The translations under genes and the position numbers were made by a program. Of a stretch of 4,534 nt of DNA, positions 1,264 through 4,470 are shown piece after piece. Position 1 is the first letter of the stretch. The number at the start of each line of letters is the position of its first letter. Where the stretch lies: IMG/VR virus record IMGVR_UViG_2778261035_000003; one strand, 5' to 3'. The notes beneath the pieces were generated by a model, which saw only the letters and a list, made by a program, of their open reading frames with translations, searched no databases and had not been told where the DNA came from. The DNA is from a virus (lineage: Duplodnaviria; Heunggongvirae; Uroviricota; Caudoviricetes).

Positions 1264-1807
1264 GCATCATTGGAAAGTGGAAAAACAACCTGAGTGGTAC
1301 GTGAAAGCTGTCAGAAAAACTATCGCGGCATTGCCTGGGGGTTACGCTGAAGCTGCTGACTGGCTGGATGTAACAGAGAACGCTTTATTCAACCGCCTTC
1401 GTGCAGATGGCGATCAGATTTTCCCGTTGGGATGGGCAATGGTTTTACAGCGTGCTGCTGGCAATCACCACATTGCGGATGCTGTCGCACAGTCTGCTGG
1501 TGGGGTGTTTGTATCACTTCCTGAAATTGAGGAAGTAGAGAACGCCGATATCAACCAGCGCCTGCTGGAGGTCATTGAACAGATCGGCAGTTATTCAAAA
1601 CAGATTCGTTCAGCAATTGAAGACGGGGTGGTGGAACCACACGAGCAGGCAGCAATTAACGACGAGCTGTACATGTCAATTTCGAAGCTGCAGGAGCATG
1701 CAGCACTGGTCTACAAAATCTTTTGCGCTCCAGAAAAGAGTGACGCCCGCGAGTGTGCAGCTCCGGGCGCCGTGGCGTTTTGTGTCTGTGGAGAAACTAA
1801 CGCATGA
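1256..1807 (+). CDS. Phage CII-like regulatory protein (CP76 / YmfL-like family), GTG start
   Basis: 183-aa ORF with GTG start at 1256 preceded by SD GGAGG (1245-1249, 6-nt spacer). It overlaps the cro stop by 8 nt, consistent with translational coupling. Position directly after cro and the central and C-terminal sequence character (LPEIEEV...LLEVIEQIGSYSKQI) resemble phage 186 CII-type regulators. Family assignment is from memory, not a search. Confidence 0.75.
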   Translation: MGKHHWKVEKQPEWYVKAVRKTIAALPGGYAEAADWLDVTENALFNRLRADGDQIFPLGWAMVLQRAAGNHHIADAVAQSAGGVFVSLPEIEEVENADINQRLLEVIEQIGSYSKQIRSAIEDGVVEPHEQAAINDELYMSISKLQEHAALVYKIFCAPEKSDARECAAPGAVAFCVCGETNA

Positions 1808-2952
1808 ACAGTTTAACGGCAAATAACCGTTTGCCGCAACAGCTGGTGGTCAGCGTGGCTGAACACCTGTTGTTACGGCATGAATGCAGATTATCAAATC
1901 ACCTGGCTGTAAGTAACCACAGAGAACTTTACCTGACTGTGGGGGGCGAGTTGTGCAGGAACTTAACTGCTGGTTTCGTGACGGAAGAGGGCTTTATGTC
2001 CATGTTATTCGTTGGGAGCCAGAAACACAGCGCGTTATCTATCTTCGCAAAGACTACCCGCATGAGTGCTTTAGTCCTTTGTGGAAATTCAGGCGTGATT
2101 TTGTTGAGTGCGAAGAACCACCAGCACATTGATTCTGTCATTCCGGGACGTTACACTGTTCAGGCACCTTATAAAGCGGGTGCCGGGATTGGCGTCCTGG
2201 AAATGTTATCGGCGATATATGACGCGCCAGCGTCTTTTTTATCGTCTGCGTCTGCGCACACCCAAATTATGGTGGGCTGGACGGGGGCACCGAAAGGTGC
2301 GCCGGTTTCCGATAACGCCGGTTACGCCAACCCCGTTCAGTTCACCACCAGCGAAATTGGCGTTTCCGGTGGTGAAGGTAATTCACTGTTATCGGAGGCT
2401 GCCATCATGGCTACGATCCCTGCCTTAGTACAACCTGAACTTTGCATTATTGCAGGCAAAGTTGTTACTTCTTCTCTGGCTGTTGCTAGTTATTTCGGCA
2501 AACAACACAAAAACGTAATTCAAAAAATTGCGTCTCTTGAATGCTCTGCCGAATTTACAGAGCTGAATTTTCAGCCCAGTGAGTACATCGACGCATCAGG
2601 CCGCAAACTACCTTGCTATCAAATAACCCACGACGGCTTTGCGTTTCTTGCTATGGGTTTCACGGGTAAACGTGCTGCCCAGTTCAAAGAGGCATACATC
2701 TATGCCTTTAACCAGATGGAGAAACAGCTTTCAAATCCCTCTGTACCGAGCGACGTTGCACATAACGCCAGCGTTCTCTGTTCCTACATTTCATCAATTC
2801 ATCAGGTCTGGCTGCAGCAGCTTTATCCTATGTTGGCAAAAGCCGAATCTCCGCTGGCTGTTAGCTTGTATGACTATATTAATGATGCTTCGGCACTGGC
2901 CTGCCTCATAAATTTGTCGCTGAACCCTTCAGAGGTAAGGGGGCGCAAATGA
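1804..2952 (+). CDS. 382-aa ORF: N-terminal region of unknown function fused in frame to a C-terminal Rha-family (Phage_pRha) regulatory domain; possible internal start at 2407
   Basis: Frame is open for 1149 nt with GC-rich third positions throughout. Start ATG 1804 overlaps the upstream stop (ATGA). Residues about 205-300 (IIAGKVVTSSLAVASYFGKQHKNVIQKIASLECSAEFTELNFQ...YQITHDGFAFLAMGFTGKRAAQFKEAYIYAFNQMEKQL) match the Rha domain. A strong internal RBS GGAGG (2394-2398) sits 8 nt upstream of in-frame ATG 2407, which would give a 181-aa protein with the usual N-terminal Rha placement. Confidence 0.6.
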   Translation: MNSLTANNRLPQQLVVSVAEHLLLRHECRLSNHLAVSNHRELYLTVGGELCRNLTAGFVTEEGFMSMLFVGSQKHSALSIFAKTTRMSALVLCGNSGVILLSAKNHQHIDSVIPGRYTVQAPYKAGAGIGVLEMLSAIYDAPASFLSSASAHTQIMVGWTGAPKGAPVSDNAGYANPVQFTTSEIGVSGGEGNSLLSEAAIMATIPALVQPELCIIAGKVVTSSLAVASYFGKQHKNVIQKIASLECSAEFTELNFQPSEYIDASGRKLPCYQITHDGFAFLAMGFTGKRAAQFKEAYIYAFNQMEKQLSNPSVPSDVAHNASVLCSYISSIHQVWLQQLYPMLAKAESPLAVSLYDYINDASALACLINLSLNPSEVRGRK

Positions 2953-3173
2953 TCCGGAATATTTTCAAACTGTTTACCAATCAGACTTTCCGTTGTCCTC
3001 GTCCGGGTCAGTGGTACACCACGCCTGCAGGGCATGTTCTACGTGTTAGCTTGGTGGACCGTGAATGTCAGAAGGTGATTTGTGAACCGCTGGGCCGTAA
3101 TTACCGCGTCAGTATGCCGCTTATAGCCTTTCGCTCCGGAAAAAACATGAAGCATCTCGGAGGTGCAGCATGA
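2949..3173 (+). CDS. Hypothetical small protein (74 aa), unknown function
   Basis: ATG 2949 overlaps the upstream stop (ATGA). SD-like GAGGTAAGGGGG (2932-2943) lies upstream. Codon usage is consistent with neighbouring genes. Three Cys residues but no recognised motif. Confidence 0.6.
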   Translation: MIRNIFKLFTNQTFRCPRPGQWYTTPAGHVLRVSLVDRECQKVICEPLGRNYRVSMPLIAFRSGKNMKHLGGAA

Positions 3174-3988
3174 GTATGGAGCTGATGGTTAAAGCGATGA
3201 AAATTCGAGTGGGTAATCCATTGCGAAAACTGGTTCTGATCAAGCTGGCTGATAATGCCAGCGATCAGGGGGAGTGCTGGCCCAGCTACCAGCATATTGC
3301 TGACCAGTGCGAGATTAGCAAACGTTCTGTGATGAATCATATTGCGGCCCTTTGTGAGTCCGGGCTGGTAAAAAAAGTCACCCGGAAAGGCGAAAAAGGT
3401 AACTCAAGTAATATCTATCTTCTTCATCTTGATGGTGCAGGAGATTCACTAGGGGGTAGTGCAAATAATTCACTATCTGGTGCAGCAAATTCACCAGGTA
3501 GTGCAGGAGTTACACCAGGGGGTAGTGCAGGAGATTCACCCAGAACCAGTCACTCTTTTGAACCAGTCAATGAACCAGTCAATGAACCAATAGCTGTTGG
3601 TGCATCTGCTGATGAGTCTGTGCGAGTTCGTTCAAACCGACCGGAATACTCTCCGGAGTTTGAGCAGGCATGGCTGGCATATCCCAAACGTGCTGGTGGC
3701 AATTCAAAATCAGCGGCCTTCAAAGCCTGGAAAGCCCGTTTGAACGAGGGGGTAAACCCCGAAACCATGCTGGAAGGTGTGAAACGCTACGCGGGCTGGG
3801 TATCTGCGATGGGTAACAGCGGCACACAATTTGTGAAACAGGCTGTCACGTTCTTTGGTCCGGATCGTCATTTCGAAGAATCCTGGGAAGTTCCTGCGGT
3901 ATCGGCAGCCAGATGCGAAGACCCGTACTTCAAAGCCAGTTACAACAATGTGGACTATAGCCAGATCCCGGCAGGGTTCAGGGGGTGA
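3170..3988 (+). CDS. Putative phage replication initiation / replisome-organiser protein (N-terminal winged-helix HTH_36-like domain, Gly/Ser-rich linker, C-terminal DnaT-like region)
   Basis: 272-aa ORF. ATG 3170 overlaps the upstream stop (ATGA) with SD GGAGG (3159-3163). N-terminus (LRKLVLIKLADNASDQGECWPSYQHIADQCEISKRSVMNHIAALCESGLVKKV) matches the HTH domain typical of phage replication initiators. The central low-complexity linker is encoded by iteron-like DNA repeats. The C-terminal assignment (FEQAWLAYPKR...KAWKAR) is from memory and less certain. Confidence 0.8.
   Translation: MSMELMVKAMKIRVGNPLRKLVLIKLADNASDQGECWPSYQHIADQCEISKRSVMNHIAALCESGLVKKVTRKGEKGNSSNIYLLHLDGAGDSLGGSANNSLSGAANSPGSAGVTPGGSAGDSPRTSHSFEPVNEPVNEPIAVGASADESVRVRSNRPEYSPEFEQAWLAYPKRAGGNSKSAAFKAWKARLNEGVNPETMLEGVKRYAGWVSAMGNSGTQFVKQAVTFFGPDRHFEESWEVPAVSAARCEDPYFKASYNNVDYSQIPAGFRG
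3435..3539. repeat. Iteron-like array: five quasi-palindromic 15-bp cores GTGCA-N5-TTCAC at 21-24 bp spacing (candidate origin of replication)
   Basis: Seen in sequence: cores at 3435-3449 GTGCAGGAGATTCAC, 3459-3473 GTGCAAATAATTCAC, 3480-3494 GTGCAGCAAATTCAC, 3501-3515 GTGCAGGAGTTACAC, 3525-3539 GTGCAGGAGATTCAC. They lie inside the replication gene's linker-coding region, and local codon choice is atypical (gga, tca, cta, agt, aga, ata), suggesting a DNA-level constraint. Function as an origin is inferred by analogy with lambda ori inside gene O. Confidence 0.4.
3543..3590. repeat. Direct repeats of GAACCA(GTCA): four copies, the last three forming a 12-bp tandem GAACCAGTCAAT x2.6
   Basis: Seen in sequence: copies starting at 3543, 3560, 3572 and 3584. 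They encode EPVNEPVNEP in the replication protein and sit immediately downstream of the iteron-like array. Confidence 0.7.
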
Positions 3989-4470
3989 TCATGAGCCTGA
4001 TGAGTGAGATTCAAAAATTCATTGAAAGCAATCCTGGATGTACGACCGGTGATATTGCGAACGCGTTTGCATACTTTCCACGTCCCCGTGTACTGAATAC
4101 GACCAGTAAGTTACGCCAGTGCAGACGTGTCGCTTATCGTAGTGAAGGCAAAACACACCGGCATTTTTCTCGCAAGGCTGTGTTGCCACCTGAGCCGGTG
4201 CTGAAGCATATGAGTGTGGCCAGTAAAAGCTACGTCGGCACTAATGATCAGCGGGTGATTTTGCGCCTGATTCAGCAGGCAGAAGATCTGGAGTCAAGAG
4301 GTTTATTTCGTCGTGCTGCAACGGTGTGGATGGCGGCATTCCGTGAAAGCCACTCCCAGCCAGAACGAAACAATTTTCTGGCACGTCGTGAGCGGTGCTT
4401 ACGGAAAAGCAGCAAGCGCGCTGCATCGGGTGAAGAGTGGTATCTGTCAGGGAATTTCGTGGGGGCTTAA
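3985..4470 (+). CDS. PerC-family-like transcriptional regulator (prophage-encoded, YfdN-like)
   Basis: 161-aa ORF. The C-terminal motif AEDLESRGLFRRAATVWMAAF resembles the conserved LE..G.WRRAA..W core of PerC/Pch regulators (recalled, not searched). Start is either GTG 3985, overlapping the upstream stop, or ATG 3991 preceded by GGGGG (3981-3985); the ATG may be the true start. Confidence 0.65.
   Translation: MIMSLMSEIQKFIESNPGCTTGDIANAFAYFPRPRVLNTTSKLRQCRRVAYRSEGKTHRHFSRKAVLPPEPVLKHMSVASKSYVGTNDQRVILRLIQQAEDLESRGLFRRAATVWMAAFRESHSQPERNNFLARRERCLRKSSKRAASGEEWYLSGNFVGA

Follow-up and report, generated by a model that had tools for sequence, protein, structure and literature searches.

An open frame of 382 codons with a prophage Rha domain probably overlies a DUF4222 gene and a C4-type antisense RNA cassette

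The locus described here raises the question of whether a long open frame is also a long protein. In the window, by which we mean the whole 4,534-nt stretch of DNA analysed, a program-made list of open reading frames contains an ATG-started frame of 382 codons at 1804-2952 on the plus strand, which is also the strand of the parts of this frame described below. A sequence-only reading had placed a Rha domain in the C-terminal half of its product, and profile searches agree, with Pfam Phage_pRha matching residues 222-307 (E 1.6e-31) and TIGR02681 matching residues 218-310. The same reading had pointed to a GGAGG followed by an ATG as the place where a conventional Rha gene would begin. The GGAGG (2394-2398) is present as claimed, 8 nt ahead of ATG 2407-2409, and all of the evidence points to 2394-2409 as the start of such a gene. 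Three explanations had been offered for the 200 codons upstream, namely fusion of an upstream gene to Rha, long and short isoforms, and a new two-domain protein, none of which is supported for a start at 1804. It is very likely that the 382-codon frame is not one protein. We consider it highly probable that this composite frame is accidental, having arisen over a non-coding stretch, a DUF4222 gene read out of frame, a cassette for antisense-RNA control and a genuine 181-aa Rha gene.

The length of the open frame is no evidence of coding, and a second frame (2108-2428) is likewise open across the RNA region. When variable columns are sorted by codon phase, third-codon-position bias is confined to the DUF4222 frame and to 2407 onward. 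The frame upstream of Rha is aperiodic, is interrupted in relatives and overlies an out-of-frame DUF4222 gene followed by a predicted promoter, a terminator and two Rfam RNAs, all of which counts against the three explanations for a start at 1804. The evidence instead fits the case that the sequence-only reading had set against its own proposals, in which the upstream frame is non-coding. Close relatives carry natural 1-nt indels that interrupt the long frame, leaving a stop at codon 140 in L020 and at codon 54 in the L034 type. In L020 the frameshift falls within the loop of the first isrK hairpin, and the frame from 1804 is therefore broken there. PGAP is inconsistent on the long frame, giving a 382-aa protein in H2 and, in H1, DUF4222 plus a 249-aa protein from ATG 2203. 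AlphaFold2, run on the single 382-aa sequence, returned a pLDDT below 50 throughout, including the Rha domain, with a mean of 32.5, too low to favour or disfavour a long protein.

The Rha-family gene itself occupies 2407-2952. Its 181-aa product matches PF09669 (Phage_pRha) at residues 21-106 (E 4.7e-32, 110.8 bits vs 29.9) and TIGR02681 (E 5.5e-34, 116.5 bits vs 45.95), which places it in the Rha family. Variable columns are distributed over the codon phases as 46/47/113 (p=5e-10), and the N-terminus, MAT[IVT]P, is conserved. In this 181-aa form the domain lies at its usual N-terminal place, with no difference from the PF09669/TIGR02681 family, whereas the 382-aa and 249-aa database models add an N-terminal extension that is unsupported by the evidence here. 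By analogy, the product is probably an antirepressor-type regulator. A Peptidase_S24 domain is present in the repressor of the prophage (213-905), which therefore may not need an antirepressor.

Upstream, the 145 nt that separate the stop of ymfL from the start of DUF4222 (1808-1952) show no coding signature in any frame. Their variable columns fall evenly over the codon phases (17/20/19; chi-square p=0.88), and relatives carry one 6-nt and one 1-nt indel. The DUF4222 gene that follows (1953-2132, 59 aa, GTG start) is out of frame with the long ORF. Its product is matched by Pfam PF13973 (E 9.4e-14, 51.2 bits vs a cut-off of 27) and over its full length by phrog_1343 (E 1.9e-35), and 24 of its 33 variable columns are at its own third position (phases 3/24/6, p=8e-6). 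Assignment to DUF4222 is made on both the model score and the coding signature, and PGAP annotates the gene in H1.

The RNA cassette has a predicted sigma-70 promoter at 2129-2157, made up of a -35 hexamer TTGATT (2129-2134), a 17-nt spacer and a -10 hexamer TACACT (2152-2157), with a start near 2164. A simple consensus promoter scan did not list this site, which was found via conservation across alleles. The hexamers (TTGACG..TATATT, TTTACA..CATAGT and TTGACA..TATAGT among others) are fixed in position across very divergent alleles, with a variable spacer between them. The first product would be an isrK / P4-seqA-type leader RNA at 2164-2240, where the model for the isrK Hfq-binding RNA, RF01394, reaches 63.7 bits (gathering score 50). 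The match runs to an intrinsic terminator, with its hairpin at 2221-2234 and a U run to 2240, and alleles differ by compensatory changes in the stem of the first isrK hairpin. Membership of the isrK family is supported by the covariance model, the terminator and the position-conserved predicted promoter hexamers. The c4-a1b1 model (RF03163) stays below threshold at 2151-2203, at 21.4 bits vs 46.7, but despite this the sites a1 and b1 that belong to the leader are present by complementarity.

A C4 / P4-CI-type antisense RNA follows at 2265-2352, matched by RF01695 over model positions 1-87 of 87 (82.8 bits vs a gathering score of 45). Its 3' end reads ...CACCACCAGC and retains the CCACC of the Rfam consensus 3' end. 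Loop a' (2309-2316) is CCGAUAAC, and single-stranded b' (2324-2330) is ACGCCAA. Both have exact complements on either side, upstream in the leader RNA (b1 2189-2195, a1 2205-2212) and downstream (b2 2357-2363, a2 2388-2396), and a2 overlaps the Shine-Dalgarno GGAGG of ATG 2407. In the window, GTTATCGG has three matches (a1, the complement of a', and a2) vs 0.09 expected by chance, and TTGGCGT also has three (b1, the complement of b', and b2). The covariance model, the paired upstream and downstream complementarity and the target over a translation start all identify this RNA as a member of the C4 family. The leader at 2164-2420 has a folding z of -5.29, and the variable columns of the RNA region are spread over the phases as 47/44/43 (p=0.91), with no periodicity across 2164-2406. 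The sequence-only reading could recognise no motif in the first 200 residues of the long frame. That was incorrect, as residues 117-212 are matched by Pfam Phage_ASH (66 bits, cut-off 26), corresponding to nt 2152-2439, the stretch that contains both RNA genes. This stretch shows no coding evolution, and the Ash family (PF10554) is not borne out here as a real protein domain; on sequence grounds, the match seems to be a translation of the RNA cassette of isrK, C4 and their targets.

Comparison of 18 specificity alleles from other prophages, which are phylogenetically non-independent, shows each site varying in step across its three copies. Within these 18 alleles the longest exact complement has a mean of 7.6 nt for a':a1 and 8.2 nt for a':a2; for b':b1 and b':b2 it is 7 nt without exception. 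Between different alleles, the longest complement averages only 3.9-4.6 nt. Covariation was scored by an anchor-based complement search, since the variable loops introduced too much noise into a MAFFT alignment of 70 cassettes. Site a2 is always at the start of the downstream gene, ending 8-12 nt before the ATG in correctly scored alleles. In the L087 type it lies just past the ATG, and in the L034 type, whose gene start is MATTP, pattern scoring placed the start inside a2. The genes that the cassette precedes are varied and encode Rha, Bro-N, Bro-N plus P22_AR_C, or ORF6N domains, with the domain N-terminal in each.

Arrangements of this type are known from several mobile elements. In the immI region of phages P1 and P7, a C4-family RNA lies on the target transcript, and its a' and b' are complementary to a1 and b1 upstream and to a2 and b2 downstream. 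The downstream site covers the ribosome-binding site, the cargo is of the antirepressor type, and the P1 and P7 alleles differ in a'/b' and in their targets. In P1 and P4, the C4 or CI RNA is processed from a longer transcript by RNase P. The element described here resembles P1/P7 immI in its C4 RNA (RF01695), a'/b' site pairs, coverage of the ribosome-binding site, cargo type and co-varying alleles. It differs from P1 in that the cargo is a Rha-domain protein, not Ant, and in that the cassette follows a cII-like gene within the early-right operon of a lambdoid prophage, with an upstream leader that ends with an isrK-type terminator. There is no icd between the RNA and its cargo, so that a2, unlike in P1, is directly on the Rha ribosome-binding site. 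The P1 immI features used for comparison are established ones (Citron and Schuster 1990, as cited in PMC8201110).

The isrK-orf45-anrP locus of Salmonella Gifsy-1 has the same two Rfam families in the same order, the same promoter geometry upstream of the isrK match, an a2 on the Shine-Dalgarno of its cargo gene and a leader ORF at the same AUG. IsrK G28 and G31 pair with orf45 C162 and C159 (Hershko-Shalev et al. 2016, PMC4825925), which by position would be the b1:b' pairing, and anrP expression depends on the translation of orf45 (PMC4825925). The two elements are identical at 184 of 316 positions. Gifsy-1 passes RF03163 (48.1 bits), in contrast to the element here; AnrP is an ORF6N-domain protein, not a Rha protein; and the Gifsy-1 locus adjoins a Q-like antiterminator gene rather than an immunity-replication region. 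The TGA that closes the 45-codon orf45 overlaps the ATG of anrP, at an offset of 134 nt, whereas here the offset is 138 nt and there is no stop. The AUGA stop/start overlap that provides translational coupling in orf45 is thus absent from the leader ORF at this locus. The immunity region of satellite phage P4 (seqA-CI RNA-seqC) is also alike: an isrK match is again followed by a C4 match, both with similar scores, and the ORF over its RNA region, once annotated as 'cI gene product, 137 aa', gives the same Phage_ASH match. The P4 cargo, however, is epsilon and the replication gene alpha, and not a Rha gene with an a2-covered Shine-Dalgarno. The P4 CI RNA acts via premature transcription termination of the left operon (as summarised in PMC4825925). 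Judged by its sequence, the element here is a module of the already known P1 immI / P4 cI / Gifsy-1 isrK-anrP type, placed before a Rha-family gene.

From the analogy with these systems, we infer RNA processing, translational repression and antirepressor activity of Rha, which may combine into a switch. The cassette would be transcribed from its own predicted promoter, and the leader RNA would be made first, with b1, a1 and then the terminator. A read-through transcript would continue with the C4-type RNA, b2, a2 and the Rha start. Once processed, the C4-type RNA would pair with b2 and a2 and block ribosome binding, as in P1 c4-icd-ant, and an antirepressor-type Rha would therefore be silent in the lysogen. 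The leader copies b1 and a1 may compete for the C4 loops, either within the transcript or as a short terminated RNA, and this competition could lift the block, just as anrP is relieved by IsrK in Gifsy-1.

The idea of a fusion, which fails for a start at 1804, survives in a limited form further downstream. A leader ORF of 46 codons (2269-2406), equivalent to Gifsy-1 orf45, starts at an AUG whose position is that of the first orf45 AUG. Because this ORF has no stop, ribosomes from AUG 2269 would run on into Rha, and since it is in frame, a 227-aa isoform is conceivable beside the 181-aa form, much like Ant1 and Ant2 of P1. In this E. coli clade, an orf45-like leader ORF would then have become fused in frame to Rha and been kept stop-free, and both forms would be made once the antisense block lifts. 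We regard two isoforms from AUG 2269, and this history for them, as unlikely. The first orf45 AUG is translated and required for anrP expression in Gifsy-1 (PMC4825925). No stop interrupts the AUG 2269 frame in 20 of 28 alleles, vs 10/28 and 2/28 for the other frames, and most alleles have an AUG-to-ATG distance of 135, 138 or 141 nt; the excess of stop-free frames and length changes that are mostly multiples of three suggest that translation through the C4 region may matter. Against this, a phase test of the 46 codons found no codon periodicity or third-position bias, the peptide varies freely with the RNA specificity sites, and AUG 2269 has no preceding Shine-Dalgarno and lies inside the C4 outer stem. 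Stops occur in the frame in L113 (two of them), in L123 and in the L087, L092 and L136 types, and the downstream gene is intact nonetheless, while in L183 the frame is open yet out of register with the ATG. L183, with an AUG-to-ATG distance of 137 nt, has a truncated ORF of 81 aa and is probably a frameshifted copy. If the longer isoform were true, the antisense RNA gene itself would code for the 46 extra residues of Rha, which would vary from one specificity allele to the next.

A genuine two-domain Ash-Rha protein, either of 382 aa from 1804 or of PGAP's 249 aa from 2203, would need RNA genes inside a coding sequence. The same has been said of the P4 CI RNA, described as 'within a Bro network gene'. 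Such a protein would account for the 66-bit Phage_ASH match, the long forms modelled by PHROGs 821 and 995 and the proteins annotated by PGAP. The sequence-only reading had proposed looking in homologues for a stop codon separating the two parts. In favour of a two-domain protein, the 82 relatives whose sequence extends far enough all have 78 or more open codons ahead of ATG 2407, and one further locus has 93 open codons before its contig ends, but elsewhere stops or frameshifts do intervene. Bro-N types have in-frame stops 3-15 codons 5' of the ATG, as do L123 and L183, and the L020 frameshift and the stops of L113 add to these. The Ash model also hits the P4 'cI protein', a discredited ORF lying over the CI RNA, and the supposed gene would contain a predicted promoter and an intrinsic terminator as well as the aperiodic 2164-2406. 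We therefore consider an Ash-Rha protein very improbable.

Equally improbable is a ymfM-like gene that started at 1804, in an ATGA overlap with the ymfL stop, and lost its own stop to become fused to Rha: K-12 ymfM, which is 112 codons long, has the same start type (MNSLT, ATGA overlap), and phrog_1170 weakly matches residues 47-98, but that match falls on the DUF4222 shadow, and a promoter, a terminator and RNA genes separate the ymfM-like region from Rha. A ymfM-like gene in the first ~112 codons was rejected because 1808-1952 is aperiodic in this family and has no DNA similarity to K-12 ymfM, and over 1831-2003 the window has none to K-12. The K-12-type ymfM has third-position bias in its non-overlapping half.

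The main value of reading the long frame as an accidental overlay on an RNA cassette is for annotation. The 382-aa and 249-aa RefSeq models of E. coli Rha, the long PHROG models and Pfam Ash seem to be translated RNA cassette. The query region is matched in 3030 of 5426 complete E. coli genomes, with at least 80% of its length covered in 512. Recognition of the cassette puts the true Rha start at 2407 and restores the DUF4222 gene hidden by the long model. The early operon of a lambdoid prophage would thus carry an RNA switch of the P1/P4/Gifsy-1 type, and its specificity alleles, at least 18 with matched changes at three sites each, are natural compensatory mutants with which cross-immunity between co-resident prophages may be tested.

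The window spans the immunity and early region of an E. coli prophage that is lambdoid and e14-like. An XRE/Peptidase_S24 repressor gene on the minus strand (213-905) is followed by a cro-like HTH gene (1003-1263), ymfL, a gene of the CII (CP76) family (1256-1807), the long ORF under study (1804-2952), a 74-aa ORF (2949-3173), an HTH_36/DnaD-like replication gene (3170-3988), and a PerC-family gene (3985-4470). The 74-aa ORF matches phrog_1153 over its full length and has no Pfam family; it shares an ATGA with the end of Rha, its ATG lying over the Rha stop codon, and at its 3' end it runs into the start of the replication gene. Iteron-like direct repeats lie inside the replication gene at 3455-3540 and 3559-3589 (units of ~21-24 nt, plus a perfect 12-nt unit present 2.6 times), an arrangement that resembles a lambda O-type initiator gene with an embedded origin. 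A 1.5-kb query around the long ORF is matched in 3030 of 5426 complete E. coli genomes, 512 of them over at least 80% of the query.

The sequence-only reading had described a 382-aa ORF with its Rha domain in the C-terminal half and a strong internal start signal, and these observations are borne out. The ORF is present at 1804-2952, the domain occupies residues 222-307 (Pfam E 1.6e-31; TIGR02681 also matches), and GGAGG at 2394-2398 is followed after 8 nt by ATG 2407. In several relatives the frame is physically broken. A 1-nt deletion near 1950 brings a stop at codon 54 (L034 type), L020 has one extra nucleotide within the first isrK hairpin loop and stops at codon 140, and in-frame stops lie 3-15 codons before the ATG in the Bro-N types, L123, and L183. 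ATG 2407 is the real start of the Rha gene, and the 382-aa ORF is an annotation artefact. PGAP calls are inconsistent: some genomes have the 382-aa model, and in others a DUF4222 gene is called alongside a 249-aa "Rha" starting at ATG 2203.

For comparison, 80 loci carrying close relatives of Rha were retrieved, and another 120 by way of a conserved 16-mer in the C4 5' stem. To look for coding signatures, variable alignment columns were binned by codon phase of the long frame (positions 1/2/3) and compared by chi-square. There is no periodicity at 1808-1952 (17/20/19, p=0.88) or across 2164-2406 (47/44/43, p=0.91). Counts at 1953-2132 (3/24/6, p=8e-6) peak at the third position of the DUF4222 frame, and those at 2407-2949 (46/47/113, p=5e-10) mark the Rha frame as coding. 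Signs of protein-coding selection are thus confined to the DUF4222 frame and to the sequence from 2407 on. A second frame (2108-2428) is likewise open over the intervening RNA region in the window, a region that is simply stop-poor.

The DUF4222 gene is complete at 1953-2132 in a frame other than that of the long ORF (Pfam E 9.4e-14; full-length match to phrog_1343). Its TGA (2130-2132) sits within the -35 hexamer TTGATT (2129-2134) of the predicted promoter that follows, which leaves no spacer between small gene and RNA switch. In K-12 e14 (L204 3323-3681), the annotated "cell division inhibitor YmfM" ORF (ymfM, b1148) encloses a complete DUF4222 ORF in another frame. This ORF (L204 3502-3681) is unannotated; it opens with TTG, 7 nt after an AAGGAG, and has a Pfam E-value of 8.6e-19. 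Among K-12-type relatives, all 8 variable sites in the overlap are third codon positions of DUF4222; the half of ymfM outside the overlap shows a third-position bias of its own (2/3/10). The filamentation phenotype could be attributable to YmfM or to the DUF4222 product, since the test of ymfM cloned the entire ORF (bioRxiv 10.1101/2020.11.19.390815).

An Rfam search of the upstream 603 nt returned two RNA families above curated thresholds, both on the plus strand: isrK RNA at 2164-2240 (63.7 bits, threshold 50) and C4 antisense RNA at 2265-2352 (82.8 bits, threshold 45). An intrinsic terminator (hairpin 2221-2234, then six T) stands at the end of the isrK match, and the leader at 2164-2420 folds far more stably than shuffled sequence (z = -5.29). 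The -35/-10 hexamers of a predicted promoter hold their place 6-7 nt before the RNA 5' end, even between alleles with unrelated spacers. Ahead of Rha the long frame gives a single Pfam match, Phage_ASH (residues 117-212, nt 2152-2439), which coincides exactly with the RNA region. In P4, this model picks out the old 137-aa "cI gene product" ORF (L203 8168-8584, minus strand), which overlies the Rfam C4 match, i.e., the CI RNA, and the derepression protein epsilon belongs to another Pfam family, PF25738. The "Ash domain" of the window is therefore translated RNA genes. Phage_ASH (PF10554) appears to model the translated isrK/seqA and C4/CI RNA region and no protein domain; one study used it as a P4 epsilon/Ash marker (PMC8628076).

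The exposed C4 segment a', CCGAUAAC (2309-2316), is perfectly complementary to GTTATCGG, which occurs at both the upstream target a1 (2205-2212) and the downstream target a2 (2388-2395); the window has 3 matches to this a-type site, where chance would give 0.09. The second segment, b' (2324-2330), is complementary to TTGGCGT at b1 (2189-2195) and b2 (2357-2363). The first bases of the GGAGG preceding ATG 2407 fall within site a2. This layout, a downstream target over the ribosome-binding site, is shared with P1 immI, where C4 RNA pairs with a2/b2 over such a site (Citron & Schuster 1990, as cited in PMC8201110).

Flanking sequence at 1804-2132 is ~97% identical in most loci, and the cassette of RNAs and target sites (2164-2406) falls into discrete alleles that are far more divergent, the kind of mosaic that specificity determinants typically show. 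The sites a1, a', and a2 covary in every allele (e.g., TTAT/ATAA/TTAT, CATA/TATG/CATA, CACCAAA/TTTGGTG/CACCAAA), as do b1, b', and b2. Measured over 18 distinct alleles, with both partners from one allele, the longest stretch of exact complementarity is on average 7.6 nt for a':a1 and 8.2 nt for a':a2, and it is 7 nt in 18/18 for both b':b1 and b':b2; partners from different alleles give means of 3.9-4.6 nt. The sequence elements, their complementarity, and their covariation are established by this analysis. Site a2 ends 8-12 nt upstream of an ATG, or lies just downstream of it in the L087 type. The gene downstream of the cassette, its cargo, varies: Rha of 181-187 or 120 aa, unknown proteins of 77 and 156 aa, Bro-N, or Bro-N with P22_AR_C. 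Any recognised domain is always N-terminal, Gifsy-1 included. Some viral contigs carry tandem C4 motifs ~650-870 nt apart (L095, ~7837 and ~8489; L132, 7675 and 8541); the two L095 cassettes differ in a'/b' specificity and are followed by Rha-like genes, one of 120 and one of 183 aa.

Gifsy-1 has the same promoter geometry upstream of its isrK match, with an ORF6N protein as cargo in place of Rha. At L285 34131-34329 (minus strand), an Rfam C4 RNA (69 bits) lies over the published orf45/STnc1160 region, and a c4-a1b1 match covers IsrK. In the sections consulted, the 2016 Gifsy-1 paper compares the locus to P4 seqA/CI and does not mention P1 c4; the IsrK G28/G31:C162/C159 helix described there (PMC4825925) corresponds by position to the b1:b' pairing. 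Orf45 is a 45-codon leader ORF with an unconserved peptide and a TGA overlapping the anrP ATG, translated and required for anrP expression (PMC4825925). Its first AUG has a counterpart within the C4 5' stem of the window at 2269, which opens 46 codons that continue without a stop into the Rha frame, a distance of 138 nt where Gifsy-1 has 134 nt. Because orf45 must be translated and the leader here is open and in frame, a 227-aa Rha isoform may, with low probability, be made from AUG 2269, or ribosome transit through the C4 region may be required. The leader frame is stop-free in 20/28 unique alleles, against 10/28 and 2/28 for the other two frames, and is mostly 135, 138, or 141 nt long. However, no conservation of the peptide was seen, no Shine-Dalgarno sequence precedes 2269, and stops occur in several lineages, with two in L113.

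P1, P4, and Gifsy-1 are the basis for proposing RNA processing, repression, and antirepressor activity here. The leader would be transcribed from the promoter at 2129-2157, with the majority of transcripts ending at 2240 to give a short isrK/seqA-like RNA bearing b1 and a1. Read-through transcripts, and probably those from the early right promoter, would carry the C4-type RNA together with b2/a2 on the Rha ribosome-binding site. Pairing of the C4-type RNA to b2/a2 would block initiation at 2407, and pairing of a'/b' to the leader copies would relieve the block. The long-ORF finding reduces to an already known kind of system, and its relevance is chiefly to annotation.
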